DNA of 64,000 nt from Octopus vulgaris (lineage: Eukaryota): the NCBI GenBank assembly GCA_951406725.2, contig OX597820.1, positions 101,246,001-101,310,000 on the forward strand. The letters run 5' to 3'. Of this stretch, positions 1,237 through 53,914 are shown in pieces; the first letter of the stretch is position 1; every line of letters begins with the position of its first letter. The notes below the pieces were generated by a model. The model saw nothing but the letters and a program-made list of their open reading frames with translations, searched no databases and was not told the origin of the DNA. The position numbers and the translations under genes are program-made.

Positions 1237-2574
1237 ATTTGTTCATTGCATTATAATCTAGATATTTCGCTACTTATATTTTTGCCACAAATGTAAAAAA
1301 AAAACCCCAAAAAACGAAAAAAAGAAAAGAAAATGTAATTCACTAAAATAACAATTTTTATAACTTGAGTCAACTTCAGTTTTAGGAATGTTGTACATCA
1401 TCTGTTTGTTCACCGTCAGTTTATTTGGAAATTCTTTAACAACCAAAATGTATTTATTAGTGACATTCTTTACATACCAATATGTTCTTACTTTTCTTTT
1501 ACATCAAAGAAGCCCACTCACCCATTGCTGTTGAGGAGATTTTGAGATTTTTAACGATCAACAGTTTAATTTCAGTCAAAATTTCTTACTAATTCTTCCT
1601 TTGATTTAAAACTTTGTTCAGATTTTAAACTTAATCTGTATGTTGATCTTTCGACAGGTTTTGGGATTAGTACCATGTCACCTGTTATTTAAACTTTAGT
1701 AATCAGGATGGTCAGCAGTGTATGTTTCTTTTGGATAATTGCCCTTTACTTTTTGGTCCTATATGTTGTAAATAGAAGCTTGAGCTCTTTTAGGCTCTTA
1801 TAGTATCATACACACTTCAGATAAAAAAAAAATAATAAAATAATGATTCTTTGTTGAATGTGAAATAATTCCTTTTAGGAATGGAGAATCTCACAGCAAA
1901 TAATGCTAAAGATATCATCATCATCATCCTTTAACATCTGTTTTCCATGTTGGCATGGGTTGGGTACATTGACCAGCTCTGGCAAGCAGGAGAGCTGCAT
2001 CAGGTTCAAATTTGGTTTGGCTTGGTTTCTACAGCTGAATGCCCTTCTAATGCCAACCACTTTACAGTGTATGCTGGGTGCTTTTAACATGGCACCAGCT
2101 TGAGTGCTCTTACGTGGTGCAGGCATAAGTGCTTTTCACATGACACCAGCACAGGGTTCTTGTAGGCCAATCCTCTTTATTAGGTGAAGTGGCATTAACA
2201 CTTCTCCTGTGGAGGATGGGGGTCTTATTGAGTACAGCAATGCATCAGATATCTTGATCCTTTGTCCTCTCCTTGTCCTTCAGTATTTTGTCCCATGTCT
2301 TCCTGGGTTCCCCTCTTTCATGAGTTTGCATGTAAATATTGGGTTAAAATCCCTTTGGATAAAAAAGATACTATTACTCAGTTTTATTTGCTCAAGTTTA
2401 ATCGTTCCAAAAAGGAACTATTTCATGTTTTCTCTTGAAGTTTCTAAATTTTTATGGCGTCTTCATTAAATGCTTATTTGTTGGTGTTCAGTACCCCTAA
2501 GGATGCTGATTAAATTGAGAAAAGAAAATGAGGAATAGAAAACCGAAGTTGATTAGTGAACAAATTGGTTTTCT

Positions 2575-2800
2575 CTTTCTCTCTTTTCTCTTTTACTTGT
2601 TTCAGTCATTTGACTGCGGCCATGCTGGAGCACCACCTTTAGTCGAGCAAATCGACCCCGGGACTTATTCTTTGTAAGCCCAGTACTTATTCTATCGGTC
2701 TCTTTTACCGAACCGCTAAGTGACGAGGACGTAAACACACCAGCATCAGTTGTCAAGCAATGCTAGGGAGACAAACACAGGCACACAAACACATACACAC

Positions 2801-2857
<57 letters not shown>

Positions 2858-3031
2858 TATATACATATATATACGACAGGCTTCTTTCAGTTTCCATCTA
2901 CCAAATCCACTCAAGGCATTGGTCGGCCCGGGGCTATAGCAGAAGACACTTGCCCAAGATGCCACGCAGTGGGACTGAACCCGGAACCATGTGGTTGGTT
3001 ATCAAGCTACTTACCACACAGCCACCCCTGC
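2575..3031 (-). mobile_element. SINE family A
   Basis: Reverse complement of the 17777 copy with an expanded (TA)n. Confidence 0.9.
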
Positions 3032-5744
3032 CAACTCCTTAAGTTCATGTGCAAACTATAAAACACTGAAAAAAGTTGTAAGAACAAAGTTATAAATATA
3101 TATATAAGTTAAAGAAGGAGGGCCTATGACCTTTGTAATCCATCCTCCAGCCTGGTGAGATTGATGTGGCTGATGTCCAATTTGAACACCTGCTGGTAAA
3201 TTTTGCAACATTGTTATGCTGCATTCTATTGAATGACACCCATTGCTATTGTAGCAGAAAAATATCTATTTCCAAAGTGAAGTTGTCCACAAAATATATT
3301 TGAATCATTTTAGGGTCCTGTTTACTATGAAAAGGATCTGTTCATTGATTTGTATTTATAAAATATTGTTCTCTTTTAAATCTAATCATAATAATGAATG
3401 TATAGGGTAATAAAGGACCTTCTTAAAAGTTGCTTGAAATTTCCATAAACCACTTCTGTAGTGACTTGTAAATTAAAGACCATCAATATGTTAGACTAGA
3501 ATAATGGGATGAATAATGAAATGCTGGTTGGATTCTTTGTTTGGTCAGTTAGTTGACCAAACAACAACAAAAACAAACATCATTATCATTGTCATCAATC
3601 TTTTAATGACAGTTTTTAAAAAAATTTTTTCATTATGGCTTTTGTGAGATGAATCTGATGTACAGTCTCTTGTTACTTGCCTCAATCCTTTATTGTCTTT
3701 GTTTGTAAGACCAGGTTTATACTATCTGGCTACCACTTCTCATGTTTCCATCAGGAACAAGTAACTTCCAGTGTTGGTTTACAGCACTTGTCGCTCCACA
3801 TTCAGTGTCCATTTACATTACTATCATACTGTTATTTCTCCCACAAACATTGACTGATACTTGCAATGTCCTGCTGCTCTCCCATCTCACTCTACATTGC
3901 TTATTTTGCACATTAACCATTTACCTGTTCAAAGTATTGTCATGAGTTTGTCTTAAACTGCTGTACATATTTTCGGACCTTTAGTTAACCCTTGTTTCAT
4001 ATGCTCTGAGTAACGTAAATATTTCCTTTCATTATTCCTAAGTTAATCTGATGGTTGAAATAATGAGAATGTGTACCATATATGATGCATAGACATCAGG
4101 GAAATATATCCATTGTATTTCATTTGAGACACAGGACTGGCAAAGAGTTAATGTTATGCATCCAATGTGTTCTTCTGTATCCTCTATAGATTAATGCTGT
4201 GTCCATGTCCTACCATATAGTATTATACTTCTTTATATACTTCATAGTTTCCTTTTTGAAAAGAGAAACACTTTCCTACCACCATAAGTAGCAGCTACTA
4301 TAGCTTCTGTTCTTTTCTTATGTAAGCTACTCAGCTTTCCCCACACAAAAACTATCTTCTGCATCTCTCATTTGGCTGAACACTGAAAAAGGCTTCATTT
4401 CATAGTTGTCTTTCTTACTAATTATTTTTGCACATATTGTGTAATTCAGGTTTCACTTCAATCTTATAGACATTCCACTATAATTTTGCTATATCCATTG
4501 TTTACACCAGCTATACAGTCTGAGTTTGCATTCACTTTTTTCCAACATAATAAGGCCACTTTCTCTGAAGGTAATATACCCTCTATTATTGGCTTTCATG
4601 TTGGGCCTTACCATATTGATATCTAACCCCTTACTCTGTCAAATGTAATGCTTATTTATTCACATTGTTTTAAATTAATCATCTGTTATCTCTTACCTTC
4701 AAGAGTGACGTTGTAGGATAGGTATGAGGGGGCCAGAGCTGGAAAGTTTCATCATAAGACAATCAGAATATTTGGACTAGATATGACTAGTTTGTAAAAT
4801 TTTCTGCAGCTCCTTTAGCAGTTTCTCATATGAAAACCAGGTCAGCAGCCTGTAAAAGTTCTCAGTGACATATTTCCTGAACACTTGCACTGTTATCTTC
4901 AAATTTAAAATTTAAAAAAAAATTGTTTTTTGATTAAGAGTTTATACCCTCTCTGATGGGACTGGTTTATTTTGGATGTAATGTACAGATGCCATTTTTA
5001 GCAGTATGTCTGTAAAAAGGTACCTGACGTTTATGGGTATTGTATTTTTAATTTAACAAAATTTAGATTTATACAGTGGAAATGCTTGTAAAGAACACTG
5101 AATACATTTGCTATTATCAACCATTTAAAAAAATTTTTTTAAAGAATATTTCTTTGAACTTTAAAATGGTTGATTTATATGAACATTAAATTATACACAA
5201 ATATGTAGTTTATAAATTTTGCACAAGTTTTTTTTTATTTATTTTAAAACAAAATCTACATTTATTCAAATATTTCTTCTGATAAATTTTTCAAAACTTT
5301 TAAGTATTAAGCAACTCTTCTGAATATTTACAGAATTTTTTCCCCTCCTTGTCTTTGATCTGTTTGAGATTCACATCAAATAACAAATGAGTAGCTCATG
5401 ATCATTTCATCATTATGTTTATCATGATGTGAGTTATATAATCACCAACTACATTTTGGAATATCATTAGGTTTTGTTGTAAATTATAGATACATGAATC
5501 TCACCGCATGATCTTTCTTCCCGAAGAAATTTTTTTACAACTAAAAGTTATTTCAGTATCACAGTTGAATGTCCTAAATAATTAGTAGTTTATTGATAAA
5601 TCAGTTTTACAGTATTACTGTTTTATTTTTTTTTCTCAAACTGATTTATTTTTTTACTGTTTTGCCTCGATTTTTCTTCTTTCCTTACATTTTTAGACCA
5701 AAATATATTGTACTGATCGATGTTAATTTGAAGTGTATATATCA

Positions 5745-6150
5745 GGTGGAGGCATGGCTTTGTGGTAAGAAGCTTCCTTCCCAACCACATGGTTCCAGGT
5801 TCAGTCCCACTGTGTAGCACCTTGGCCAAGTGTTTTCTACTATAGCCTCAGGCTGACCAAAGCCTTGTGAATGGATTTGGTAGAGGGAAACTGAAAGAAG
5901 CTCGCCATATAAATATATATATATATATATATGTTTGTGTGTTTGCCTCTCAACAATCGGTGTTGGTGTGTTTATGTCCCTGTAACTTAGCAGTTTGGCA
6001 AAAGAGACTGATCGAATAAATATCAGGCTTAAAAATCGAAAATAAATGAGTACTGGGGATGATTTATTCGACTAAAAAGTCTTCAAGGCAGTGCTCTACC
6101 ATGGTTGCAGTCTAATGACTGAAACAAGTAAAAGTCGTCAAAAGATAAAA
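5745..6150 (+). mobile_element. SINE family A (diverged)
   Basis: Head, microsatellite and tail all recognisable. Confidence 0.85.
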
Positions 6151-6389
6151 AATACATCCTTGTACATTCTATCACTCATAGCATATATTTTGTGAGTTTA
6201 AGAAATGTATCAATTATTTCACTTGGCAATATCTTATTTGAAGTTCAAAAAGTCGATGCAAAAGAAAGGGAATGAAAAATCTCAGATATTTTAAACAAAG
6301 TTGACATTTAAGACATTTTATGGTGAAACTGGCATTGGTGGTCACAAGTTTCATACATAGCACTAGATACCTATTATGCATATGTATAT

Positions 6390-6987
6390 ATGAATTGATG
6401 CTGTCTCTAGTGGTCAAGCATCTATCATTGACAAGACCAAGGAAGATAGAAATCACATGATCTTGTGGTCTTGGCACTGGGGGTAGCAAGGATTTATTTC
6501 CCCACAAGCGATATAAACGAGTGCATTTTGCATCAAAATCCCATGTTAGAGTTTCTCTCGTGGCAACTAATGCAGTATAGTTTGTTCTAATAGAACATCC
6601 ATGTTATTACCTCTCATTATGAATACTGCCTCTGTCACTAATGAATATTTTTTAGCAAGCTCACTGGCTAATTGTGGCACCAGTGCCCATTCTGGCACTG
6701 TTATTCTATATACTGCTGGCAGGTAGATGAATCTCTGCTATCTCTAGTGGTTGAGCATCCATCATTGACAAGACCAAAGAAGGCCAAAATCATGTGTTCT
6801 GGTGGTCTCAGCATTGGAGGTGGCAGGGATTTATTTCCCCTTTAATAATATAAACAAAAATGCATTTTGCTCCAAAAGCCTATATGAGAGTTCCTCTCAT
6901 GGTAGCTACAGCAGTATAGTTTGTTCTAACAGAACATCCACATTTAATTGAGGATAAATATTAATACTGCTTTTGTTGTTAATGAAT
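6390..6987 (+). repeat. Diverged tandem duplication, period ~340 bp
   Basis: tctctagtggt..catt gacaagacca..ggatttatttcccc..gcagtatagtttgttctaa occurs twice. Confidence 0.85.
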
Positions 6988-7110
6988 ATATATATATATA
7001 TTGAAGTTTGTATGATTGTGTATAGAAGAATATATTAATCAATGAAATTCCAACTAAATCTGATTTTCATGTTTTATTATTTGCAAATTTTACAATTTTA
7101 CAATGTTGAA

Positions 7111-7161
7111 ATAAATTAGTACTTTCATGCATCAATCGGGTTTACACAATCATCAGGTTTA
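7111..7161 (-). ncRNA. Hammerhead ribozyme motif abutting a MITE insertion
   Basis: Minus strand reads taaac-CTGATGA-t-tgtgt..atgca-t-GAAA-GTAC-TA-atttat. Core intact, palindromic stem III, stem I with one mismatch. Confidence 0.55.
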
Positions 7162-7910
7162 CCATAAAAACCCATGTAATTTTTTTCACTAAAATTAAAA
7201 TAAACTTTAGGGGTGCGTAAATCTACATGAGTAGATTGTTTCCAGAATTTTTTTTGAAATTTTTTTTGTTGAAAAAAGACATACAAAACTTAAACATTCG
7301 AACTGGAAGTTGACTCATTTAATGCCAGAATAGGTTTTTACAGAAAAAATAGTGACTTAATTATAATGAAGTTGACTATTATTTATGCTGGATGTTCTGG
7401 TGGTCTCAGCACTGGAGGTGGCAGGGATTTATTTACTCTTCCTATATAAATTTACTAAAATCATTAATGTTTATTAGTAATCAAAATTAATTTGCAACAC
7501 CTATGCATTGTTTTTGTTCATAATTCTTATCAACAACTTTTCCTGTGATCATGATTTGAGAAGACATACAGCAGTATGCTAAAGATCGGACATAATCTCC
7601 TGTGGGCAAGAAATGTAAAATAAAGTTTATTATAAATAGAACAAACACTTCGTAATTTAATAGCTTTTAATGTGATACCTGTTAGACAGAAATTATTTTT
7701 ATTTAATGAAAATTTAATAAAATCTAATCATAAGTAAGTGAAATTATGCTAAATACAACTAAATTGAAAACTTTTTCCCCTGGCCATATTGATAATTCTG
7801 AAAACTTTTGGGTGCGAATTTTCATGAGTAGAAGTGTTTTTTAACAAATTTTATCCTCAAAATCACCTGTGTAATTTACACAGGTGTGCAAAATACATGG
7901 GTTTTTACGG
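7162..7910. mobile_element. pogo/Tc2-like non-autonomous element
   Basis: TIRs ccataaaaacccatgta / tacatgggtttttacgg with TA duplication. Confidence 0.85.
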
Positions 7911-10379
7911 TATGTAGTGACAGTCGTGTTCCACAATTGACAACTGAGTGTGTATGTATATATATGTATATATCAAAAGGATGTGTTATAATACTATTCC
8001 ACAGCCATACCAACAATCCAACATACCTCCATCATCAGCTGTCCCATGAATATCTGTAGATGAAAAACTTCTCTAAATAATATCAACTCAGCTAAATACA
8101 GAAATAACATGATAACCTATATATTTAACTTATATATTAGCAGTATCTTGTGGATTGACTAGAACATCTGTAACTCATGTATCAAAGAAGTTGCACTTTA
8201 CAACTATTATTTAATCACTAGAAAAATAGATCTTTGTGACTTTTGAAAAGAAGAGGATTCTGTTTCAGGTTAGTCCCTCCTCCTGATAAATATAGAAATT
8301 TACTTGGATTCTAGTGCTTTTCTTTCCCCAAAAGTGTTTTGTGATTTTTGAATATCACAGTCTTTCTGTCTCCTCTCTTGGCAACATTGTGTATGTCAGT
8401 GCCTTTGATAATGGTTTTTATTGTTTGATTATTTTATTGGGCTGAGGTTGGTTACATGTAAAGGAACACAGCATAAACGCATTCAGGTCACCGAGTTTTA
8501 GACTGATATAAACATATACACAGGCATGTACAAATGGACAAACATATACAAGTGTGTGCATGTACACACACATACACATGTCCACACACACATACGGTTC
8601 TAGGTTTCTGCACAGCTTCCCTCTACAAATTCTATTTATAAGGCATTGGCCCATCACTGGCTACATCAGAAGACATTTGCTCTTGCTGCTGCTGAGAGGT
8701 CAAATCCAAATAACTTCATTTTGAGGCAAACTTTTTAACTACGCAGCCATGCTAGTATTATAAATAATGCATTAATATTCCTTTATCATTTTGTAAGTTT
8801 TTAAAACTTGTGTGTCGTATGGAAGATGGCAACGCATATTCTATACACAAAAGTATATCAGGGTTTTGAAAGTGTTATAAGTATGGTGCATGTATGTAGA
8901 AATGTATTTAAGGTAAAAGAACTTTTAAAAAAAAAAAAAAAAAAAAACCTGCTTGTAGCTGAAACTGGCTTCATTGATTGATTCTGAATAGAGTTTCATT
9001 TAAAAGGATGCAGGGTGTTTTCCAATCAAGAATGAAGGGAAAAAAATACTAAGTAAATCTGTACCTGATTTTGTATTGTAGTAGTCTGCCTATTATAACC
9101 TGTTGATTGAAGGATGAAATAAATGAAACCAAGAGAGAGAGAGAGAGAGAGAGAGAAGTGGATGTAAAGGAATAGAACACAGAAGGTGTTTTGGAAAGGC
9201 AACAAGGAGAAAGGCAGATGTCATTGAGAAAAGTATAAGAAAAATAAATGTGTCAGATGTAAAAGTACCTGGTGAACTTAGTGATTGTATGACAGCACCT
9301 GTACTTCATCTTTTATGTTGCTTTCTTTGCTCATAGAAGTAAAACTCTCATATGGGGAAAATAAATAACAGATGTTTAAATATCTATCATTTAGAACACC
9401 TGAAAGGAAAGTTGTAAGTTAACAACATGTAAATAATGCAGCAATTTGTATATATTAGAAGTTCATTCAAATCCAAGCTGGCCAGTTGTATTTTAAGAGG
9501 ATGCGAGAAAATATATATATTTTTAAAGAATTCAGAACAATAAGTTATGAAATTTAGTTTCTATTTTTATCTTTCATTGAATATCAAATTGTCATAGGTA
9601 CAAGCATGGCCATGTGGTTAAGAAGCTCTCACATCAACAATGTGGCTCTGGGTTCAATCCCACTGCAAGGCACCTTGGGCAAGTGCTTTCTGCAATAGAC
9701 TCTGGTTGATAAAAGCCTTGTGAGTGAGTCTGGTAGACAGAAATGGAAAAAAAAAGTAATGCATGTATGTGTGTGTATATGAATCAGTTCGTATTTTCCC
9801 CGGTCTTGTGTGTGTTTTCTGGTTGTAAGCAAAGGCTTTGCTGACAGTATTGAATGTGTTGTTTACTTGTAGTCCACTTGAAAGCATCTCTAGGCTGCTT
9901 CTCCACAGCATCATGTCCGGACAGTTTGTTGTTCACTTGACCAGTAGATTATTATCTCACTCAGAAACAGGCAGGGATTAATGTCAGGAAGGGCTGTAGA
10001 AAATTCTTCTCTAGTGTACTCTTGTCTAGCCCATGCAGAAAAGAAAAGTACACACTAAAATGGTGAGGATAACAATGCCATGGAATGCTAGTATCTACTA
10101 TATATTTTCATTCTAAATTCAGAAAAGCCGAGGGATTTTTTTCTTTTTTTGTAGTTTTGAATTTTAATTCTGCATTTGTATGCATATAGTTCCTTCCCTA
10201 TTTCTCTTATTGCTTTTGACGGCTTATTTGAAAATGTTCATATGAGCACATGGCTTCAAAGTCATCATGGGTGGCAACAGAAGAATTTCATAGGTTACAG
10301 GTTGTGCAAATCTAATTTCAGGAAATATTATTAAGAGAATATTTTTTGTATTTCAGTAGATCAGTAACAATAATGTGCA

Positions 10380-10410
<31 letters not shown>

Positions 10411-10411
<1 letters not shown>

Positions 10412-10790
10412 AATCCTTAAATCCTTTAGGCTGAAGGCCACGGCCATGCTGGGGCACCACCGCTGAATGAGCTACACTAATATGTGAATCCACCTCTGAT
10501 ACGTGGCACTTGGTCAACAAGGGAGTTCGATGCCGATTCCCGCATCTGTGTCTCCTGTCGTGAGGTAGGTTCATCTGGGACCCCTGACAAGAAGAGATCA
10601 AGTTTAGTTTTAAAGAAACCCACATCCACACCATGCAAGTCTCTCAGGCATTTAGGGAGGATGTTAAAGAGCTGTGGTCCTCTGAAACCCAAGCTGTTGC
10701 AGTATCTGGTCTTGTATTTTGATGGTGATGTTGGAATTTTTGGCACCATGCAGTGGCGCCCCGTTTTGGCTGCCATGGGTTTTGCAGTAA
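10411..10790 (-). mobile_element. 3' end of a second CR1/L2-group LINE
   Basis: ORF 10477-10776 contains SLGFRGPQLFNILP..FKTKLDLFLSGVPDEP. Short 3'UTR ends in (aaggattt)2 next to (TA)n. Confidence 0.8.
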
Positions 10791-10973
10791 ATTACTAAAT
10801 CATCCATAACTTTTGTATTATCCTCTCAAATTATACCAAAATCTCAGGCAATAACAAATAATATCGTATTTATTGTCTGTGAAAAATTATAGAATATAAA
10901 ACAACTTTGATAAAAAATTATATCTACTTTTCTGACAAAAACAATGCCATTCTGAACATTTTGGCCGCCACTG
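10791..10973 (-). mobile_element. Tc1-like terminal fragment
   Basis: TA + cagtggcggccaaaatgttcagaatg end on the minus strand. Confidence 0.5.
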
Positions 10974-11300
10974 TATATATATATATAATATATAATGTGT
11001 ATATATATATATATATCATGATCATCATCATCATGGCTGAGGTTCATGCTGTTATGTTTGTGTATTTGTTTTGCAAAATTCTTGATGTGAAATCGTGTGT
11101 TGAAACAGATATTGTTATATTTCGGGATGGTCTTTTATTTTTTTTTTTCTGACAAATAAACACACACACTCTTAAGCGTTATTATTGTTCTTATCTTAGT
11201 GTCCTTTGTCTTAAATCTTTTGTCACACTTCCTGTGACCTCTTCAGCGACTCTCCATCCCATGTGTATCAGCTTGTTCTATTCATATATATATATATATA

Positions 11301-12033
11301 TATAATTTCAACAATTGAGGGTAAAATTAATTAATTAATCAATTTCACCAAGTATTCAGTATACAAAGGGACCATTTAAGGCGAATTCAAATTATTACAT
11401 TATATAAAAGGGCTTAGTAAAATAAATTACTTTGCCGCATACTGAACTCATTAGAAATAGCAGCTAAAAAAACTTTTTTAAAACTATCTCCAATACTTAA
11501 AGAAAACCTCTCTCATATAGTGTTTGCTCAATTCAACTCACGAAAGTATGGGGGTAGAGACATTAAAAAATCAAATGCAAAGGTTATTTGAGAACGTACG
11601 TTTCAAGATTAGTCAAAATCGACACTTCTATCATCAGCTCAGAACTCCCTGGTTTGGATTTGAAAACACTGAAAGTGGGAGCATACCCTTTCGGCCTGTT
11701 ATCGCTTCTGAAGATCTGCTCAAAACTAACAGTGCTAGCAAATTCAAATATTGCAAGCGAAGAATTTCTGCTCTCCCCTTTCCACCAGCGTGGGTTAAAA
11801 TCAGCAAACACTATGCTTTTTTCGGTAAAATCCGAGGCATTATATAGAGAGAGATGAATTATAATTTCAACAATTGAGGGTAAAATTAATTAATTAATCA
11901 ATTTCACCAAGTATTCAGTATACAAAGGGACCATTTAAGGCGAATTCAAATTATTACATTATATAAAAGGGCTTAGTAAAATAAATTACTTTGCCGCATA
12001 CTGAACTCATTAGAAATAGCAGCTAAAAAAACT
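11301..12033 (-). mobile_element. Non-coding hammerhead-bearing retroelement (Penelope pseudo-LTR or retrozyme-like), partial tandem
   Basis: Apparently identical 174-bp direct repeats at 11301-11474 and 11860-12033 (offset 559). Hammerhead in the unique part; (TA)n on both flanks. Confidence 0.7.
11589..11641 (-). ncRNA. Minimal type-I hammerhead ribozyme motif
   Basis: Minus strand reads tgag-CTGATGA-t-aga..gtcg attt tgac..tct-t-GAAA-CGTACG-TT-ctca: intact core, 4-bp stem I, stem II, palindromic stem III, GUU cleavage triplet. Confidence 0.72.
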
Positions 12034-13607
12034 CTATTATATATATATATATATATTTAAATCTGGCAAGTTGGGCAGATTTCTATGGTTACAATTTTAA
12101 TTTATTGATAATGTTGTTAACTTTATTAATACTTCTAATGCAGTACATATTTGAAGTTGGCTATCAATCAGAATGAGTGAATATGGCAAATATTCATATT
12201 TTTGGAGGATTTTAATAGCAATAAATAAAAAAATTTTAAATCATTACGCTTATTGTTTGCTGACTTTAAGGGTAAACATTTCTCTATTCTATACTGTTTT
12301 TTTGTTTGTTTTTAAATTGGTATTTATAGATTATTTATGATAACTTGGATTGCTGTCCTTGTTATTTAGACTACAGTCCAGCTCGAAGAATCTTAATAAT
12401 GAGTTCAAATATCTGTTTATGTTTTTTTTTTTTTCTTTTATTGCATTATTGTATTCTTGAACATTTGCATATGAAAGTATGAAATAATTTACTGTATTAG
12501 TTTATTTATATTGGCTGGACTAAACAAATATCTTAATGCATCCTTATCTGCATAAATGTCAAGTAAATAATATATTTCATGATTTTATGGAAAATCAAAC
12601 AGTGCTCTATCAGAACTTTTCTCACATTAGCTGCATTGAAATACTGCCCCTGCTTAATAAAATCTCTCTCTTTCTCTCTCTCTCACACACACACACACTC
12701 CTCTGCACTGATGTAAATGAGTGCACTTGTTTATGCACTCCGATACGTAACAAAATATTAAAATCTCCTATAACTTCTAAAGGGTTCTTAGATCCTTCAC
12801 CCTTTAGTATTTAAACCAGCTATTTCTTCTGGTCCAAATACTCCACCTGTCTTACGTTCATTCAAACTGGTCAGATCCAGCCTCTTGTACCTACCCTGCA
12901 ATATCATTCTAAAATTAAACAATCACATCATCGAAATCAGGAAGCTACAGGATAATGCATGATTAACTCAAAACAATGAATGAATAAGCATTATATTTGC
13001 CAGGGCCATGTCATGCTGGTACCCTTCAAAAACACCCAGCACATACATAGTAAAGTGGTTGACATTAGGACAGTATCCAGCCATAGAAACCATGCCAAAT
13101 CAGATTGAAATCTGGTGCAACTCTCCAGCTTGCCAGCTCTGCTCAAACCATGGAAAACAGATGTTGAAGGATGATGATGATGATGATTTGACAGAGTAAT
13201 CTGAATTATGAAATGATTAATGAAGACTTCTTTGTAATGTGTTGCTTTGAGAGAAACAATGTCAGTCTGGTAGAACTAGTTGTCTTTCAGGCTGTTGGTA
13301 AATGGGCTGGAGGGTAAGTGGGTCTACCTGAAATTACTGGTGAAATGAATAGATAAATGAAGAAATGTCTCGATCTGGAATTGAATGGATGTTATGGATT
13401 TTGCTTACCACTATTATGCTATGCTTCTATGTGTATGTGCATAATCCATGTTCATGTAAAGATTTAAATATTATCCTCAAGCATCATCAATGCATGATAT
13501 CTTCAGTAAATGGGTAATTTCTTAAGATGTTGCAGTGGAGTTGAGTAGTTAATGATTTAATGGTCAAAATGTAACATTGACATGAACCATCTTGCGAAGG
13601 AGGAAAT

Positions 13608-13772
13608 ATGAGTGGCTGTGTGGTAAGTAGCTTGCTAACCAACCACATGGTTCCGGGTTCAGTCCCACTGTATGGCATCTTGGGCAAGTGTCTTCTGCTA
13701 TAGCCCCAGGCTGACCAATGCCTTGTGAGTGGATTTGGTAGGTGGAAACTGAAAGAAGCTTGTCATATATAT

Positions 13773-13810
<38 letters not shown>

Positions 13811-13997
13811 TTGTGTGTCTGTGTTTGTCCCCCTAGCATTGCTTGACAACCGATGCTGGTGTGTTTACGTCCCCGTCATCTAGCAGTTCAGCAAAAAGAG
13901 ACCAATAGAATAAGTACTGGGCTTACAAAGAATAAGTCCCGGGGTCGATTTGCTCGACTAAAGGCGGTGCTCCAGCATGACTGAAACAAGTAAAAGA
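13608..13997 (+). mobile_element. SINE family A
   Basis: High similarity to the 17777 copy; short deletion in the tail. Confidence 0.9.
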
Positions 13998-14190
13998 AAA
14001 AAAAAAAGAAAAAATATATATTATATATATACATATATATATATATCTATATATAGTTATGGTATATTCTATTAAAAATGTAGTAGAGTACAGTATAAAG
14101 CTCGTCCACTGTCAGATTTACCCTCTGCTATCCAGTGGTAGTATTATACGTACTTCCAGGTTTGCATTTGGGCATTTGTTGTGTGTGAAT

Positions 14191-14815
14191 AGATAGAGAA
14201 AATTGGGGTAACAAGAAGGGGTAGAGTTGGACATATATTTATTAATCACTGCAATTGTTTCCATGCAGCATTTTTCTCCAGATGTGCAGGTACTTGATTA
14301 TGCAACTGTTTCCCTGCATTATGAGATCTAGTTGTGTTTCTTCAGGCGATATGTAAGTATTATCTCCTTAAGTTTAAAATTCTCAGCTACAAGAACATCC
14401 TCTCAGTTTGTCATAGCCTGAATTTAGTAGTAGTCACAGCTTATCAGGGTGTGTTATTGCTGAGGGGCCATTGGCAAACTGCTTTGCCAACAATCCTTCA
14501 GCAGCAACACACTCTGATAAGCTCAGTGATTACTACTAAACAGCAACAGTACACCCTGATAAGCCCAGTGACTACTACTAAATTCAGGCCATGACAGAGA
14601 GGATGTTCTTGAAGCTGAGGATTTTAAACTTACGAAGACAGTATTTACATATCGCCTGAGGAAACACAACTAGATCTCATAATGCAAAGAAACAGTTGCA
14701 TAATCAAACCTGCACACCTGGAGAACTACACTGCGTGGAAACAGTTGTAGTGATTAAAAAATAATTGTCCAACTGTACCCCTTCTTGACTCTAATTTTCT
14801 CAATTATCTATCTAT
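14191..14815. repeat. ~620-bp imperfect fold-back palindrome
   Basis: Arms pair from gagaaaattggggt/actctaattttctc inward to ttggcaaa-ctgc-tttgccaa (~14472-14491). Confidence 0.9.
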
Positions 14816-15450
14816 CTCTCGTGTGTGTTTGTATTTCTGTGGACCATTTAACAATATATGCTGAAACACTTCTGATTGCAAACAAAGCCAACTCATGGAC
14901 TCTGTTCACTGGTGGTAACGAGGAGTGCAATTTTGATGACTATACTGTTGTTTAGCCTGTTTCAGCCTTGGCTGAGTTGACCAATAAATCAAAAGCATTC
15001 TAATCATGACCATCTCTTTTTTTGTGCCTAGGACGTTATTCTCTAAAGTACCCTCCCTTCTTTTTCTTTAAATAAATGTATTTTAAGGGAGATTTAGCTG
15101 TTATTTCCTGTAGGTCAGACAATCAGGCAGAGGTTTCTTTGTTGGCTTGGCAATGGTAGGGTGCGGAGGAAGAGGACAGCAATGAGAGTGGCAATGTATT
15201 TTCTCACTAATTTTCATGTTTTAGTTTGCTACAGCTTGACTTGTCCTCTTAATAGCATTTGTCAGCTAGTATCATTTACATTTGCCTGCTATTTCAAATT
15301 CTTCATTACTAAACATGATTTTCTTTAATTTTTCTCTTTTTCAGTTTTAGTAATTAGGTCTCAGATTTCATTTCTTGAAGTATTTGAGCTATAATTTTCA
15401 TTTGATATTTTCATTTATATATATGAATATGTGTGTGTGTGTGTGTGTGT

Positions 15451-15788
15451 AGGCGTGACTGTGTGTGCTTAGAAGCTTGCTTCCCAACCACATGGTCATG
15501 GGTTCAGTCCCACTGCATGGCACCTTGGGCAAGTGTCTTCTACTATAGCCTAGAGTGGATTTGGTAGACGGAAACTGAAATATATATATATGATATTTAT
15601 GTGTGTGTGACTGTGTTTGTCTCCCCACCATCATTTGAAAACTGATGCAGGAGTGTTTATGTCCCTCTAACTTAGTGGTTTGGCAAAAGAGACCGATAGA
15701 ATAAGTAGTAGGCTTACAAAGCATATATCCTGGGGCTGATTTCTTTTACCAAAACCCTTTAAGGTAGTGCTCCAGCATGGCCACAGTC
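15451..15788 (+). mobile_element. SINE family A, followed by an RTE-type tail fragment (to ~15875)
   Basis: Similarity to both families. Confidence 0.8.
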
Positions 15789-15877
15789 TGGTGCAGCTTC
15801 TCAGTTTGCTAGCTCTGGTCAAACCGTCCAACCTATGCCAGCATGGACAATGGACATTAAATGATAATGATGATATA

Positions 15878-15969
<92 letters not shown>

Positions 15970-17454
15970 CTAGTTTCTTTCAGTTACTGTCTATGAAATC
16001 TACTCACAAGGCTTTGGTTGGCCTGGAGATAGAGTAGAAAACAATTATTGAGGGTAAATCTAAAATCATGTGGTTGATAAGTGAATTTCTTTGCCAGTAC
16101 AACTATGCCTGCATATCTGCATCTTGCAAATCTGTGCTACAAAATTCAGTAATTGTGTGTGTGCATGTGTGTTGTTGGAGAAAGTGTTTTATAATTGGTT
16201 GACCTTTCTGAAGGCAACTACTGTATTTTATGGCGTATAATGCCCAAGAAAATATAACATGCACTCTTAGCCAGAAGAGAAAATTTCTTGCAAAAAAAGA
16301 AAAAAAGAAAAATTAAGAAATCCAAAGACATTAAAAGCTAGACATAAAATTTTTTATTCATTCTTAACAGGAAATATATCGGCATTTATATTATTGTATA
16401 AAAAATTAAAAAAATAAAAACAACAAGCAAATAAAAGAAAATCATAAGCTTCATGTTTAAAAAATAATTACCATCATCTCATGGTTTAAAAACAAACAAA
16501 AAAAAATTACCATTATCTCATATTCACTGTCTCACTTACTCCCCATCTCTCACTCTCTCATTCTTGCAGCCTCCACCCATCCGCACTGTCAGTTCTACTC
16601 CCATCCATTTTTCTTCATCTTGTTCTTTGTGGATCTACACAGACTCCTAATCACCATTATTTTTATCTCTTCCTCACTCCACTCTTACCACCTCCTTTCT
16701 TCTAAAATATAAGTAGCCGTGTGACCCCTCTACAGCAAGAAGCCTTTTTCACTTCAGCCCTTTTCCTTGTACTTTGATCCCTCATCTCCTAGCACAAAGC
16801 TACTTCTCTCAGGGGGTTCGTAGTCTTGCAAGGAAGCTGCATGGCAACCTTCTTGGGGATATAAGAAAAAGCACTGTGAAGTGATTGGTGTTAGGAAGGG
16901 CATCCAGCTTTAGAAACCATGCCAAAGTAGACAATTGAGCATAATGCAGTCCTTGGTCCTCTTAGTTCATATCAAACTGTCCAACTCATGCTGTCATGTG
17001 ACAAAGATATTAAATGATGATGATGATGATGATGATGATTCTAATTTTTAAGCTAACAAGCCAATACCAAAATATTTATTGTGAAATCGGATGGAAAGAT
17101 ACAGCAAATAGAAATGAATAAACAGAAGATACAAGAATACTTTATTATGCCTTATCAATTGTTACAGTATCTAAAATAGAATTACCTATCTGCACCTGGT
17201 GACTACAGTATCCCCTTTGAGCCTCTAAAATAGGCTAGCCCACTTGTGCCCAGTGGCTACTGTATCCACCCCTTTGAGTATCTCAAATAGATTTACCCAT
17301 TTTCACTTGGTGACTCTTTTTGGTGGCAGTCTCACTAAAAATACATTGCAAAGGCATAACCTTTACATGTAAATATCTGTGTATATCATCATCATCATCA
17401 CTCAAGCAGTTGACTGTGCTTGACCTCTGACTGACAAAGTGGAAGTGTGCGTGT

Positions 17455-17570
<116 letters not shown>

Positions 17571-17776
17571 CTTTTGGTTTACATTTGCTAGAATCCATTC
17601 TCAAGGCTTTTATCAGCCTGGGGCCATAGTAAAACACACTTGGCCAAAGGTACCATAATGGGGGACTGAACCTGAAATCAAGCGGTTCGGAAGTGAACAT
17701 CTGTTCCACCCAGCCATGCCATTAGTGTGCTAATTAATATTGTTTTGCATTTATGGATTCCCTTTTAAATAACATA

Positions 17777-18168
17777 GGCGCAGGAGTAGCTGTGTGGTAA
17801 GTAGCTTGCTTACCAACCACATGGTTTCGGGTTCAGTCCCACTGCGTGGCACCTTGGGCAAGTGTCTTCTACTATAGCCTCATGCCGACCAAAGCCTTGT
17901 GAGTGGATTTGGTAGATGGAAACTGAAAGAAGCCCATCGTATATATGTATATATATATGTATGTTTGTGTGTCTGTGTTTGTCCCCCCAACATCGCTTGA
18001 CAACCGATGCTGGTGTGCTTGTGTCCCTGTAACTTAGCGGTTCAGCAAAAGAGACCGATAGAGTAAGTACTAGGCTTACAAAGAATAAGTCCTGGGGTCG
18101 ATTTGCTCGACTAAAGGCGGTGCTCCAGCATGGCCACAGTCAAATGACTGAAACAAGGAAAAAAAAAT
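17777..18168 (+). mobile_element. tRNA-derived SINE family A, near full length
   Basis: Head with A/B-box-like gctgtgtggtaag / gggttcagtccc, internal (TA)/(TG) microsatellite, tail ggtgctccagcatggccacagtcaaatgactgaaac. About 20 copies in the window. Confidence 0.9.
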
Positions 18169-19557
18169 TTTTTTAAATAGTCATTCAAACTACATAAATT
18201 TTTTTTTTAATACCTTATTGTATTTTAAACAATTGTGCTCAACAGTATGTGGTGTGCCTACCCTGTAAAATATGTTAATGTCATTGTAGGTGATGACAAT
18301 TCAAGTTCACCGCAATTTTTATATAATTATATTCATTTCCATCTCTTTGAAATGCAAAGTGATTTAAAAATAAATGGCTCATTGAAACCATGTTTTGCTA
18401 ATGTATATTGCTGCTGTTTTGTTGTCTTCTGACAAGCTGTTTTCTGATTTGCTTTTCCTGTTTGCTGAATACCTCGACCTTGCAGTCTTATTTATTGTTC
18501 TTTAAACTAGTTTGTAAATGGATTTCAAAAGATTACTAATGTATGCATAGCATGTGTAATACTTATTTTTGAAGTATGATCTCATAGTTAAAATATTAAA
18601 AAAAAACAAACAAGAAAATCATGTTGATATGTAGCTATATCGCTAATTGCTTTTTTTCTTGTAAAGACATTTAAAAATACACAAAAAAAATGCTTATAGA
18701 TTCTAGATCCCTAAATCTAGTGGGTGTTTATTGATTTACATTTGTGCATTTTTAAAGCAGGTAAAATGATGGTTCGTTATGAAGAATTTCCTTGTCAAAG
18801 CATAACAAAATGAAAAATGGATTTAATTAATTTGATTCTTGATCTGGGTTAATCGAGAATAAATTAGAAAAAAACTTTGTATGTGATGTTACCATCATTA
18901 TTGCTATTGTTGTTGTCGTCATCATCATCATCATTGCCATTGTTTTAGCTTATTTTTCCATGTTGTGATGGGATGGATGGGTTGTCACGGTCCAAATCAA
19001 TTCTTATCCAGACTTGCTGCCCTCATATGTGGTCACATGTATATTCCATATTTGGCATGGATTCCCTAGTTGGATGCCCCTCCTAAGATCAAACATTTTA
19101 CAGAGTATATTGGATATGTTTTACTGTGATGTAGTATGCTAGAGAGATGTCCCTCTGTTGGCAAAACTGAAGAATCATCTCAGTTCTATGTTGTCCTTGA
19201 TTGTTCACTGGCACCAGAGAGATTCCTTGATCCATGATAAGACTAAAAAAAGTCCATCTTCCTTGTGTTATCTCCATTCATTTGTTCCTTTCTTTCCCAC
19301 ACAATGTAGAAAATGATACTCATGCATTCAATCATGTGTTGTTATCTCAGGTCATGTAGGAGGTGTTGTAGAAGAAATGGGCATGGTAGAAGAGAACCGG
19401 AGTGATAAGAGTGAGAGTGTGTTAAAGGATATAGTAACAAGAAAGAGAGGGTGGGAGAGAGAGAGTAAGCAAGCAAAGCAGAGAAGGTAAGAATGAATGA
19501 TAGGAGAGAGTGAGAGAGAGAGGGTGATGAAAGGGGTAATAATGGTAAATTGGGAAT

Positions 19558-19930
19558 CATCATATCATCGTCATCATCGTTTAACGTCCGTTTTCCGGGT
19601 TGGACGGTTCGACCGGGGTCTGGGAAGCCAGGAGGCTGCACCAGGCTCCAGTCTGATCTGGCAGTGTTTCTACAGCTGGATGCCCTTCTTAACGCCAACC
19701 ACTCCATGAGTGTAGTGGGTGCTTTTTACGTGCCAGGGAAGTCTGGCAGCGGCCACGATCGGTTGGTGCTTTTTACGTGCCACCGGCACAGAAGCTGGTT
19801 AAGGTGGCGCTGGCATTGGCCACGTTCGGATGGTGCTTTTTACATGCCACCGGCGCAGAAGCCAGTCAAGGTGGCGCTGGCATCGGCCATGTTCGGATGG
19901 TGCTTTTTATGTGCCACCGGCACAGAAGCC
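19558..19930 (-). mobile_element. RTE-family 3' end
   Basis: Same conserved tail with about 3 internal tandem units. Confidence 0.85.
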
Positions 19931-21815
19931 AATATGATGGAAAAAAGGGGCAGTGAAGTGAGGGCCTCTTGTACATTAGAATACATTTCCCTGTCTCTGC
20001 TCCAGCATTGCTTCAATTTCTCCAGTTCTGTCCTTGAAAACAGCATGACAAATACAGTAAATTACTGTAGCAGTACTTATTGTAATTTCACTCCAGTCTT
20101 TACTATGTATTGTTTTCAAAGTGTAATGTATCAACAATTAAAGCTTTATATCCACTTGTGTTCTAGCTACTCCATCACAGTTATTCCCTGTAAGTTTAAA
20201 TTTCCTCCTTATCATCTTGTTGATATTTATTGTCATTAGACAGTTGCTGTACCCTTTTCTTTGTATGTGTAACAGATAAAAGGGCAACTGGTTGAGTCTG
20301 TAAGGGTGTCAGCAGATATGTTGGTAGATAAAAAAGAATTGTGTCACTGGCTTGTGGTTTTTTCATTACTAGTAATAGGTCACAAACAACCCAGTTCAGT
20401 TGTTAGCAGATCCCTTTTGTAAGTAAAGTTTGCTACCATAAAGTACAGGCATGTCTGTGTGGTAAGAAGCTTGCTTCTCAATCACAATTCTAGGTTCAAT
20501 TCCACTGCATGGTACTTGGGTAAATGTTTTCTACTATTGCCATGGCTGACCTAAGCCTTGTGAGTGGACTTGGTAAATGGAAACTGAAAGAAGCCCAGCA
20601 CACACATGCACACAAGTGTGCAAATACAATATAATTCACATGTACTTTGTTAGTTTACCATAGCTTATTGTGATCCTACTACAGGTACAGTTTGGTGAGA
20701 AATGGTTTCTATGAAACTGTCTGAAACAGTATGAAACCAGTCCCAATGCATTGTGAAAGCCATCCATCAGCTTATGACTAATGCAGTTTGGATTGTTGTC
20801 GTTATTCTTATTACTTTTGTAAGTTCTGTGAAAGACGAACAGTGTTATTGTTATTCTTAAACAATTTCTTCGTCAAATGATATGATTAAGTTTCCTATGT
20901 GACCAAATTCACACAATACCTATATTTTATCTCCTTTCTGTGTAATGTCTTCATTTTACCGATTATTATAGCTCCATACATCAGAACCATTTTTCTAATA
21001 TCAGAAGCCATTCTCTTGCTGATGCCACTTTATCTCGGTTTTCATTGGCAATTTTTCTTCAGTTGTAATTGCTTATGCTTGTTTAACTTAAATTAAACCT
21101 CAACATTGTATAAGCACACCGGAAAAAGTGTTTAAAAATCTTTGTTTATATTTCATATATGTAGCTAACCTTGTTTTGGTGTGGAACTGTTTCGTTTGAA
21201 CATCACGTGTGATTTGATGTTATCATCATTCTACCGAACCCATACCAATGTGGAAAATAGATGTTATTTTGTCTTTAAAATTTGATTTAATCTTTTCTTT
21301 CATGAAGTGTTACATTAAAAAAAATTTTTAGATTTTTATAAACACAATTTCTTGTTCCTTTTCATATAATTTTATTACTCGATTTTTAGCAAGGAGAAAT
21401 TGTCAGTTAATTAATGTTTTATATGGAAATTTACATAGCTCTTTTGGCTTTTGTTAAAAGTTGAAAATGTAAGATTAAATCTTTGACTTGGTAAAGACTG
21501 AAATAACTTGTTTTCATTTACACTACCAAATACAAAGAATATTTTGTTCTGCATGTATTACACTAAATTGTATCAGATTGCACATCTGTCTGCAGGAAAT
21601 GTATAGCAAAACACAGGACATGAACATTGAGAATTTCACAATTTTGGTTTTGATAGGACTTTGTGAAAGATGATCTTCAGTGAAGGTTCTGAAATTACAG
21701 GGTGGAGCATAAACACAAGCTACACAATTAAAAGTTAATAAGTTTCAAAATAATGTGTGTCCTAATATAAATCACAGTAATAGTATGGAAGGAGAGAATT
21801 GAATAAAAATATTTT

Positions 21816-23917: not shown

Positions 23918-24620
23918 TTGGGTCATCCCATAAATAACGCAGTTTTTTTTATACTTTTTTATTTTTCAAAACTAAGATAAAGTTCTTTTTTTAATCTAAA
24001 ATATACTCTCCTTCATTTTCTACAATGCTCTTACATCTATCTTGTAGGCTTGCAAGGCCCCTCTTCCAAAATTCACCTGATCATGAAAAAAAATACACCT
24101 CCAGTACTCTTCTGACCTTGTCTACAGAATTCATATTTTTTCCGTCCAAATGATTTTGAAGACTGTGGAATAAATTATAATCAGATAGGGCAATGTCTGG
24201 CGAGTATGGTGGGTGGAGCATCATTTCCCATTCGAACTGCTCCAGCCTTTGGAATGTCATCCTCACTGTATGTGGATAAGCATTATCCTCATGAAAGAAC
24301 ACCTTTTGTCTTGAAACCAAACAGTCATTTTTCTTCTAGCACTGACTTAAGCCACTCAAGCTGCTCGCAGTAGATTCCTTTGTTATTGTTTGGTTTGGAT
24401 TTAAAAGTTCAAAGTAGACTAAACCTTTCATATCCCACCAAACAGATAACAACACCTTACATGGGTGAAGACCTTTAGCCTGGAATGATGGTGTTTCTCC
24501 TATCCCTACCCACTATCTTTGATGTTTGACATCTTTATAGAGAACCCATTTCTCATCACCAGTCACTATTTGGTTGAAAAAAGGTTCATTCGTGAGACAT
24601 GCCAGCAAAGAAGAGCATAC
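23918..24620 (-). mobile_element. Truncated mariner transposon (3' half)
   Basis: TA followed by a TIR-like end ttgggtcatcccataaataacgc. DD34D-type motifs TGDEKW, HEDNA, HPPYSPDIALSDY. Confidence 0.88.
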
Positions 24621-24999
24621 TTCCTTTTTAAATGGTAGGGTAGGATCTAAGCTTGATGTAGTTGTTACTTTTAGCAGGTTGAGTGGACCACATAAAGGAT
24701 CTCTCAATGACTTGCAGACAATGATGTAGGGTCTTGACCTGCTTAAAATAGCTGCCTTCTCTACTGCAAATATTTTCCAGTCTTTAGGATAAAGGTTATG
24801 TATTATAAGTAAATCTGAAAATTTCATTCAGTAAGAAAAGCGACGTCTATGGCTACAAATATCAGTTGTATGCTTTGTTCCAGTGGATATTTTTGTTTGG
24901 CTTAGGCTCAGGCTAGCCTATATCAACAGCTGTAACTTGGTTTCCAGTGATAAACATATATACACTCCAAGAATACAAAACAAGATCTTTATCCTTCAT

Positions 25000-26646: not shown

Positions 26647-27302
26647 CACACAGCAGGCTTCTGCACAGTTTCTATGTACCAAATTCTACTCTAAAGGTAT
26701 TGGCGAAAAGGCACTGTGTACGGTGGAATTGAACTTAGAACCACACAGCTGCAAAGCAGACTTCTCAACTGTAAATCCATGCTTAGTCTTGTATGTACAT
26801 GTGATACAGTGAATTTTGTTTAATTGGAACAGATCTGTGTGCAAGTACTTTTGCCCAACCTAATGGGTTATTTCCTAATTATATAAATTTTTATGGACTA
26901 AATCTGAAGGACAAAACAAAAGCCAAACTACTGTTTTTAGACTTTTGAAAACAAAAAAAATATTAGCTGTGTGTGTTAATTGGAAATCTATTTTAGCAAA
27001 TCTGGAAACAATGGACTGCTCTTGAGACACATAAACACATGTATATTTATTTGTTCTTTGCAATAGAGGGCAAATTATGAGCAAAAATAAAAAAAAAAAA
27101 AGGTTTGTAATAATGAAGTCATTGAGGCCAGAGGTATGGTTAATGACTGGGGTATGGTGCAAGGCTACTTGGCAGGTTGACCACATAACTTTGCCCATTT
27201 CCATTTTACCATTGCTTAATATGGTGACTGTGTAACGTACAGGCACGTTTTTCTTTTAAAGTTTAAAGCAGCATTCTTTTGTTACTTTTGCTACCTTTTC
27301 TA

Positions 27303-27707
27303 TCTCTTTACTCTTTTACTTGTTTCAGTCATTTGACTGTGGCCATGCTGGAGCACCGCCTTTAATCGAGCAACTCGACCCCGGGACTTATTCTTTTGTA
27401 AGCCCAGTACTTATTCTATCGGTCTCTTTTTGCCGAACCGCTAAGTAACGGGAACATAAACACACCAGCATCGGTTGTCAAGCAATGCTAAGGGGACAAA
27501 CACAGACACACAAACACATACACATACATACATATATATATATATGACAGGCTTCTTTCAGTTTCCGTCTACCAAATCCACTCACAAGGCTTTGGTCGGC
27601 CCGAGGCTATAGTAGAAGACACTTGCCCAAGGTGCCATGCAGTGGGACTGAACCCGGAACCATGTGGTCGGTAAACAAGCTACTTACCACACAGCCACTC
27701 CTGCGCC
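27303..27707 (-). mobile_element. SINE family A, young full-length copy
   Basis: Near-consensus sequence ending ..gccactcctgcgcc. Confidence 0.92.
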
Positions 27708-27719
27708 TTGTCCAAAATA

Positions 27720-32734: not shown

Positions 32735-33316
32735 CATTATCATTATCGTTTAACGTCCGCTTTCCATGCTGGCATGGGTTGGACAGCTTGATTGAGAACT
32801 GGCAAGCCAGGAGGCTGCACAGTCTCCAGTCTGATTTGGCAAGGTCTCTACAGCTGGATGTCCTTCCTAACATCAACCACTCTGAGAGTGTAGTGGGTGC
32901 TTTTTACATGCCACCAGCACAGGAACCAGCCAAGTGGTACTGGCATCAGCCACATTCGGATGGTGCATTTTACATGCCACTGGCGTGGGTGCCAGTCAGG
33001 TGGCACTGGCATCGGCCATACTCGAATGGTGCTTTTTATGTGCCAGTTAGGTGGCACTGGCATCTGTCACATTCAAATGGTGCCATTTATGTGTCACCAG
33101 CATGGGTGCCAGTCAGGAGGCACTGGCATCAGCCATGACTATAGGTCTTCATAAGTATGGCACATTGTCCAACAATTGAAGGTTGCTTTTAAACGGGCTA
33201 GTTATGCGACACTGGCATTGGTCACGACTACCATCTCACTTGGTTTACTGGGTTTTCTCAAGCATGGCTTATCTTCAAAGGTTTCAGTCAATTGTCATTG
33301 CCTCTCTGAGGCCCAA
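32735..33316 (-). mobile_element. RTE-family 3' end
   Basis: Same tail with about 4 tandem units; extends to the ORF end region. Confidence 0.85.
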
Positions 33317-40578: not shown

Positions 40579-40972
40579 CATGGCTGTGTGGTAAGTAGCT
40601 TGTTTACCAACCACATGGTTCCGGGTTCAGTCCCACTGTGTGGCACCTTGGGCAAGTGTCTTCTACTATAGCCTCGCGTCGACCAAAGCCTTGTGAGTGG
40701 ATTTGGTACACAGAAACTGAAAAGAAACCTGTTGTATATATGTATATATATATATATGCGTGTTTGTGTGTCTGTGTTTGTCCCCCTAGCATTGCTTGAC
40801 AACCGATGCTGGTGTGTTTATGTCCTGTTACTTAGCGGTTCAGCAAAAGAGACCGATAGAATAAGTACTGGGCTTACAAAAAGAATAAGTCCCGGGGTCG
40901 AGTTGCTCGATTAAAGGTGGTGCTCCAGCATGGCCACAGTCAAATGACTGAAACAAGTAAAAGAGTAAAGGA
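40579..40972 (+). mobile_element. SINE family A
   Basis: Near-consensus sequence. Confidence 0.9.
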
Positions 40973-41298
40973 GTATATATTCCATAAACTCTTATTCTTA
41001 TTGCAGTTTGTCTGGAACTGATTGAACGAATTGCTAGTCCAGTTCACTAATCTTAGGAAAGTAGGTATCTAATTCCTCATAGAGTGAAACAAAATGCTTC
41101 TGGACTTAACATACTGGCATCATTGATGTCTTCTACTTCTGTACATTTATCAGTTCTTTCACTTCAAATCCAACTAAAATACTGAGCCATGGTAACATCA
41201 CCATCATCATTATTATCATCATCATCATTTAATGTCTGTTTTCCATGCTGGTATAGGTTGGTTGATTTGTCTGGATCCATCAAACTGCAGGGCTATAC

Positions 41299-53885: not shown

Positions 53886-53914
53886 ATATATATATATATG
53901 TCCAACCCATGATA

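Follow-up and report, generated by a model that had tools for sequence, protein, structure and literature searches.

The insert at positions 11301-12033 of the window, by which we mean the whole 64-kb stretch of octopus DNA that was analysed, is very probably a young dispersed copy of a high-copy, non-autonomous Penelope-like element (PLE) family of the non-LTR retrozyme type. We lean, with modest confidence, towards a unit-length circular RNA as the template from which this family is copied; the insert itself is probably a dead-end daughter copy. Retrozymes are a known type of family whose life cycle (circle, helper reverse transcriptase (RT), reinsertion) has been inferred. With what appear to be thousands of copies, a fixed junction, an apparently selected structure and young identical repeats, the octopus family would allow this life cycle to be tested on existing octopus assemblies alone.

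Results

A partial head-to-tail tandem of a non-coding unit

The insert consists of the following parts.

11301-12033, minus strand: whole insert, 733 bp, equal to 1.31 head-to-tail units
11301-11859, minus strand: single full 559-bp unit, 34% GC, without a credible ORF, its RNA predicted to be highly self-paired
11301-11474, minus strand: copy 1 of the 174-bp repeat, the 3' part of the unit, with three predicted hairpin domains and without the hammerhead
11860-12033, minus strand: copy 2 of the 174-bp repeat, a second unit that is truncated at its 5' end, pseudo-LTR-like
11859-11860, minus strand: head-to-tail junction, common to other, divergent family copies

The two repeats are identical at 174 of 174 positions at an offset of 559, with mismatches immediately beyond both ends, which bears out the description in the sequence-only reading of identical 174-bp repeats and about 1.3 head-to-tail copies of a 559-bp unit. 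The end of copy 2 corresponds to position 11474 and falls within the loop of a predicted hairpin (11481-11464). The minus-strand hammerhead and the asymmetry of the predicted fold, both described below, point to minus as the RNA sense, which would make 12033 the 5' end of the element and 11301 its 3' end. No second copy of the unit was found elsewhere in the 64-kb window.

The longest reading frames in the unit have 101 codons (minus strand) and 108 codons (plus strand), and neither has a Pfam match. None of 60 longer candidates and not the single candidate of similar length proved to be a protein relative of the 101-codon frame, a result that counts as weak evidence. Across the family, single-base deletions within this frame are common (11619, 11751 and 11817). 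A tRNA search of the 64-kb window found none. The unit, first read as non-coding, thus remains so, a low-GC sequence (34%) with neither Pfam nor protein relatives and no tRNA head. An ORF encoding an RT and a GIY-YIG endonuclease is absent between the pseudo-LTRs, and the insert is not an autonomous PLE. Nor was a PLE ORF found attached to the unit, an arrangement that the sequence-only reading had said would make it an ordinary pseudo-LTR.

A high-copy family with a shared junction

The 559-bp unit is present in 20 of the 24 sequencing runs listed, which span seven studies and three organism labels, and at least half of the sampled words are found in 18; none of the runs that hold it is recorded as RNA. 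We aligned the contigs of 4 of these 20 runs to positions 11030-11900, excluding the (TA)n at 11272-11313 and the right flank. Two of the runs, X1 and X6, are guessed to be DNA, and about 2.7 billion contig letters were read from each. Summed contig depth over 19 bins between 11330 and 11899 had medians of 9.5e5 and 1.1e6 in these two runs (minima 2.1e5 and 1.4e5), compared with depths of 44, 54 and 64 for the three flank contigs longer than 700 nt that were listed, so that the ratio of unit depth to flank depth is 2,500 to 20,000. This points to a family of thousands of copies as an order of magnitude only, because overlapping contigs overcount and summed depth is not copy number. The family is high-copy in two organisms.

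Depth does not dip at the junction; over 11840-11899 it is 7.8e5 and 8.9e5 in X1 and 1.17e6 and 1.10e6 in X6. Contigs that fit both 174-bp repeats are few (28 of 11145 and 20 of 10413). Among the 31 records listed, with 22954 further rows beyond them, X17 records 15 and 16 and X6 record 22 bridge the junction by a 31-letter rule, the two X17 records differing at 25 and 10 letters, and four more traverse it with fewer letters. Loose ends within the unit, among the 24 rows of such ends listed, are short and lie on one to nine contigs each, and the longest listed contig on the unit measures 630 nt. Summed depth over the repeat part is 1.5-1.7 times that over the remainder of the unit.

Since the junction is not private to this locus, a purely local 174-bp duplication is ruled out, and a chance joint of truncated PLE ends becomes unlikely. 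A single-copy unit, which the sequence-only reading had named as an outcome that would undo it, is likewise at odds with the number of runs that hold the unit and with a junction found in divergent copies; what we find is a family of many copies whose units are arranged head to tail.

Two runs guessed to be RNA contain the unit, including the hammerhead region. Their unit depth relative to DNA lies 3.6x and 23x below that of a neighbouring repeat; contig depth is a poor measure here, and these values speak neither for nor against a circle.

A minimal hammerhead motif on the minus strand

11589-11641, minus strand: type I hammerhead motif, made up of a 4-bp helix I, CUGAUGA, helix II, GAAA, helix III and U17

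In this motif, 11641-11638 pairs with 11592-11589 to form helix I (4 bp), CUGAUGA starts at 11637 and G12 is at 11604. Helix II is interrupted (3 bp + 4 bp), helix III has 2 bp with a palindromic loop, and N17 is the U at 11593, which places the predicted cut between 11593 and 11592. A U at position 17 is less well cleaved than C or A. The repeat unit contains a type I core, and it contains the PLE minimal architecture of a short helix I, a long helix II and a palindromic 15.2-16.2 with loop 3. Helix II has U.U at its base (alternatively a bulged U plus a weak A-U), so the G10.1-C11.1 pair that follows an extra nucleotide at 9/10.1 in the PLE minimal consensus, as given in PMC4209133, is absent. 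With U17 and without G10.1-C11.1, the putative ribozyme looks weak.

A structural descriptor, composed only after the motif had been seen, has one match in the 64-kb window and none in 400 dinucleotide shuffles, both strands being searched; a loose hammerhead pattern gave 41 rows with 10 distinct starts, of which 11637 alone passes the descriptor. Rfam returned no hits on the 64-kb window at gathering score, hence no hammerhead, and on 11200-12100 at E<=10 it returned seven chance hits (E 2-10), none of them a hammerhead. The minus-strand hammerhead first noticed from the sequence alone thus holds up as a type I core with a palindromic helix III, but one that is Rfam-negative.

Folding predictions place the active shape above the minimum. 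The minimum free energy fold of the isolated 53-nt motif is not the active shape (z +0.58), and within the circle the active hammerhead fold lies 3.7 kcal/mol above the minimum-energy fold. Two palindromic helix III strands are predicted to pair at -9.8 kcal/mol, which fits a dimer model. Because the hammerhead lies outside the 174-bp repeat, the insert carries one hammerhead only, and at 1.31 units the locus falls short of two successive units that each have a complete hammerhead.

In collections of metagenomes and prokaryote genomes, neither a hammerhead pattern nor a 23-mer had any hit. Thirteen hits to a loose core pattern in viral contigs were set aside as chance, having at most one helix I pair and being unlike the unit outside the pattern.

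A strand-asymmetric predicted fold that family variants spare

11506-11855, minus strand: predicted long rod, with the hammerhead near its apex and closure within 5 nt of the junction

The minus-strand circle is predicted to have 63% of its bases paired and to fold at -152.2 kcal/mol, compared with -115.4 +/- 5.5 for 40 shuffles (z -6.7), as expected of a highly self-paired RNA. Pair probability exceeds 0.9 for most of the rod helices listed, the weakest having 0.40 to 0.70. Folded as a linear molecule, the unit has a z of -10.1 on the minus strand and -3.5 on the plus strand, with 30 control strand-windows (8 shuffles each) ranging from +3.3 to -6.5; the predicted energy of the linear unit (-157.0) shows that it folds as well as the circle. 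The strand-asymmetric fold contains 23 G-U pairs. The four main domains leave out 7% of the unit, and the 3' end of the insert falls there, a location as compatible with a fixed linear end as with an unpaired priming site.

To relate family variation to the fold, we used 26 in-unit substitutions from the 40 rows listed of 176, 14 flank rows being left out. On the minus-strand fold 13 of them keep a pair, 11 fall on unpaired bases and 2 break a pair, compared with 8.8 breaks expected (P 0.00035); on the plus-strand fold, which served as a control, there are 6 breaks (P 0.10). The mean refolding cost of the variants is 0.02 kcal/mol versus 1.17 kcal/mol at random placement (P 0.027). As family copies are related rather than independent, all of these P values are optimistic. 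One candidate G-C to A-U double change occurs at 11364/11437, and none of the 26 listed substitutions lies in the hammerhead core. The sparing of minus-strand pairs by variants and the strand asymmetry of the modelled fold point to selection on the RNA.

Target site and a probable single template

11277-11304, no strand assigned: left target, a 6-nt word followed by C and (AT)n; candidate target-site duplication (TSD), copy 1
12033-12056, no strand assigned: right target, the same 6-nt word followed by (AT)9; candidate TSD, copy 2

Tracts of (AT)n occupy 11284-11304 on the left and 12039-12056 on the right, so that an insert inside (TA)n, as originally proposed, is found to be bounded by the microsatellite on both flanks. 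The candidate TSD of ~24 bp, with a one-base indel, is uncertain because it is mostly (AT)n microsatellite. The tail of the left (AT)n shares a 4-letter microhomology with the start of the repeat, the presumed 3' end of the element, and TA-like words occur six times within the 559-bp unit. The 5' word of the unit (11840-11859, minus) also resembles the left target (11278-11300, plus) at 15 of 19 letters; as the predicted rod has this word paired to 11506-11520, the resemblance is probably fortuitous.

At 11363/11922 both repeats carry a minority allele, with ~9% of the depth in X1 and almost none in X6. The 95% upper bound on the divergence of the two repeats is 1.7%, though the family is variable, and a random copy would match at all seven sites shown with P ~0.009 if the sites are independent. 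These observations fit an origin of both repeats from a single template, or from identical units that lay side by side in a tandem transcript.

A cluster of A-to-G changes at the junction

One of the junction-bridging contigs, X6 record 22, is 630 nt long and has a depth of 21.7. It spans 11662-11858 and 11388-11583, with 40 printed letters linking 11858 to 11337. We compared these letters by eye with 11859-11895 plus a 3-letter insertion carried by ~1/5 of the family depth. On the plus strand 14 of the 17 Ts are changed to C and none of the 23 other letters is changed (Fisher 3e-8), which is A-to-G on the hammerhead strand; the two aligned pieces of the same contig differ at 33 and 28 letters. 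One of the three unchanged As has a 5' G and two have a 5' A. ADAR disfavours a 5' G context (PMC5625713, PMC2873906) and octopus hyper-editing is exceptionally high (PMC5625713).

X6 record 22, a single contig from a run that is only guessed to be DNA, suggests an ADAR-edited RNA that was reverse-transcribed into DNA, and it gives a hint of an RNA intermediate of hammerhead polarity. Editing so dense may require an inverted partner copy rather than the rod of the unit itself. We put forward, tentatively and as somewhat short of an even chance, that a more-than-unit-length retrozyme RNA was hyper-edited by ADAR, reverse-transcribed and reinserted, and that the octopus genome keeps the DNA record. 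If this is true, strand-specific A-to-G clusters in genomic copies would be direct proof of an RNA intermediate and would reveal its polarity. Editing of RNA would then act as a heritable mutator, helping to explain why retrozymes and PLE hammerheads have long been noted to be heterogeneous in sequence. Should the edited genomic copy be genuine and have others like it, it would be direct evidence of retrotransposition for a retrozyme, and it would link the strongest known animal RNA editing to sequence change in the germ line. No description of ADAR write-back in retrozymes was found in the open literature, searched by title and abstract start.

In X1, extra T>C changes also occur at a loose end, carried by 5 contigs, that precedes 11753. 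In the RNA-guessed run X17, A>G and T>C occur at 27 and 32 places versus 14 for C>T and 15 for G>A, on few contigs; this excess, unlike the DNA-guessed runs, fits A-to-I editing on both strands. We do not claim a family-wide A-to-G bias, as the 26 listed variants comprise 12 A/G and 9 C/U on the hammerhead strand.

Discussion

Relation to known retrozymes and Penelope-like elements

At sequence level the octopus family likely works like an animal non-LTR retrozyme, with cleavage and the circle being predictions. The animal families described in PMC7229834 and bioRxiv 10.64898/2026.07.22.740005 share with it a head-to-tail, non-coding unit that bears a single type I hammerhead, a GC content under 45-50%, a self-paired predicted RNA, thousands of copies and a possible TSD of >4 bp. 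The preprint presents retrozymes as PLE derivatives of 51-972 bp, a range that includes our 559 bp, and axolotl HHR_Amex2 is also reported to have U.U at the base of helix II. There are differences. The octopus unit is longer than the circles of 170-400 nt in PMC7229834, its own circle of 559 nt being only predicted, and its hammerhead has a PLE minimal or atypical build rather than the canonical one of non-LTR retrozymes. The preprint ties activity to two hammerheads; the octopus locus has one and would be classed there as a monomer derivative.

PLE hammerheads, as described in PMC4209133, have a short helix I, a longer helix II and a palindromic helix III, and the minimal hammerheads of PLE pseudo-LTRs resemble ours in a helix I of 4 bp, a helix II of 7 bp in all, a small palindromic helix III suiting a dimer, and a partial tandem. 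The octopus insert differs from those pseudo-LTRs in having no ORF between its repeats, in placing the hammerhead outside the repeat and in its lack of G10.1-C11.1. A bias towards (TA)n, partial tandems and non-autonomous head-to-tail forms are all described for PLEs in PMC8557442. Among these, Chlamydomonas MRC1 is alike in being non-coding, with pseudo-LTRs, head-to-tail insertions and microsatellite targets; unlike the octopus unit, most Chlamys and all Naiads are reported there to lack canonical hammerheads.

In the open literature we found no description of a cephalopod retrozyme or of this octopus family; the supplementary hammerhead lists of PMC4209133 may include cephalopods, and the family may sit in Repbase or Dfam as an unclassified or Penelope repeat. 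The sequence-only reading had proposed a recently mobile non-autonomous family. The multi-copy, head-to-tail and non-coding character of the unit and the exclusion of a local duplication uphold that part, and a Penelope origin is likely only.

A model for mobilisation and its alternatives

For the preferred reading, a circular template, we propose the following sequence of steps. Tandem source copies would be transcribed through on the hammerhead strand, and two hammerheads, paired through the palindromic helix III, would cut at U17; scarless ligation would turn the 559-nt product into a self-paired circle. An autonomous Penelope-like element would then supply the GIY-YIG endonuclease that nicks (TA)n, and the nicked end would anneal to AUUAUA, an unpaired word located at the junction. 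From there an RT would copy one full round plus 174 nt (1.31 rounds) and halt in a hairpin loop, and joining of the second strand would leave the ~24-bp duplication. Cleavage, circle, helper and priming are inferred from PMC4209133, which includes a circle model for PLE hammerheads, and PMC7229834. An insert with one hammerhead only would not release a unit-length RNA by two cuts, which is why we regard it as a probable dead end. Poor cleavage in vitro of minimal PLE hammerheads (PMC4209133) and cleavage of only 1/9 frog dimers (bioRxiv 2026.07.22.740005) count against the circle; the expansion of Penelope in coleoids (PMC8967140) counts in favour of the reading.

The main competitor keeps the same non-autonomous Penelope-like family and dispenses with the circle, the template being linear and the hammerhead weak or vestigial; we consider it rather unlikely, though it deserves a hearing. 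The linear RNA could be an uncut read-through of a tandem source, or a 559-nt RNA that ends at AUUAUA, with re-initiation at the 3' end of the same or a sister RNA. The weak features of the ribozyme, a linear fold as good as that of the circle and a 3' end at a structural boundary all suit it, as does the greater depth over the repeat part, which is what copies sharing one 3' end but truncated at the 5' end would produce. Partial tandems are also formed by PLEs that lack hammerheads (PMC8557442). The linear template accounts less well for a junction that divergent copies from two organisms have in common, the rows listed showing no accumulation of loose ends. Re-initiation by an RT often leaves scars, and scars of that kind are unlike the shared junction. 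The intact hammerhead core, spared by all 26 listed variants, also argues against a linear template, and two repeats that are identical at a minority allele are most simply explained by one molecule.

Debris of an autonomous Penelope-like element, in the form of two 5'-truncated pieces of its 3' end or pseudo-LTR (559 and 174 bp) joined by chance, is a reading that we regard as largely refuted and hence very unlikely. Its attraction is that the geometry is that of a PLE partial tandem and the hammerhead architecture is of PLE type (PMC4209133 and PMC8557442), and the 893 loose-end rows and 69 joints beyond those listed leave room for a rare coding partner. A chance joint, however, would be private to the locus, and 11859/11860 has family-level depth in both DNA-guessed runs; the 101-codon minus frame, which has neither a protein relative nor a Pfam match and in which deletions are common, also speaks against it.

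We regard as highly improbable that the hammerhead is a passenger, either of a satellite that spread as DNA, through unequal exchange or by DNA circles reinserting, or of a 174-bp duplication confined to this locus. Contigs cannot separate large arrays from dispersed copies, and head-to-tail units with microhomology at the ends would fit reinsertion of a DNA circle. Against such spread count the strand-asymmetric fold, variants that spare minus-strand and not plus-strand pairs, the clustered A-to-G changes of the hammerhead strand, and a (TA)n target that carries a candidate duplication; the shared junction excludes the local duplication.

Other repeats in the window

A crude exon scan of the window found no convincing host exon. 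The left flank of the insert (11057-11261) belongs to a different high-copy repeat, MITE-like and bearing inverted arms, that has matches at 53466-53889; this repeat shows opposite-strand joints near 11118/11252 and matches of 74-80% in both orientations near 53.5-53.9 kb. At 14212-14787 there is a long fold-back element that encloses a 42-bp direct repeat; its nested inverted repeats have arms of 80, 114, 29 and 41 nt with a complementarity of 80-97%.

An abundant SINE-like family of ~400 bp with microsatellite ends, its copies 70-94% alike, is found at 2570-3030, 5740-6160, 13610-14020, 17775-18165, 27296-27708, 40580-40977, 41294-41708 and 55755-56161, among other places. A second repeat family, at 19743-19931, 32896-33093, 52603-52860 and 54078-54234, is built of tandem subunits of 51-67 bp (and 137 bp).

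C-terminal fragments of a LINE ORF2 lie at 36804-37574 (plus strand) and 10477-10791 (minus strand); of the 15 relatives of fragment 37038-37571, the four named proteins belong to Octopus vulgaris, at 88-93% identity, and to O. sinensis, at 72%, so that this one repeat makes an octopus host probable. Finally, 27783-28133 (minus strand) is a Mariner-like transposase fragment with a weak DDE match, and 24513-24827 (minus strand) holds what we take to be another Mariner-like transposase fragment.
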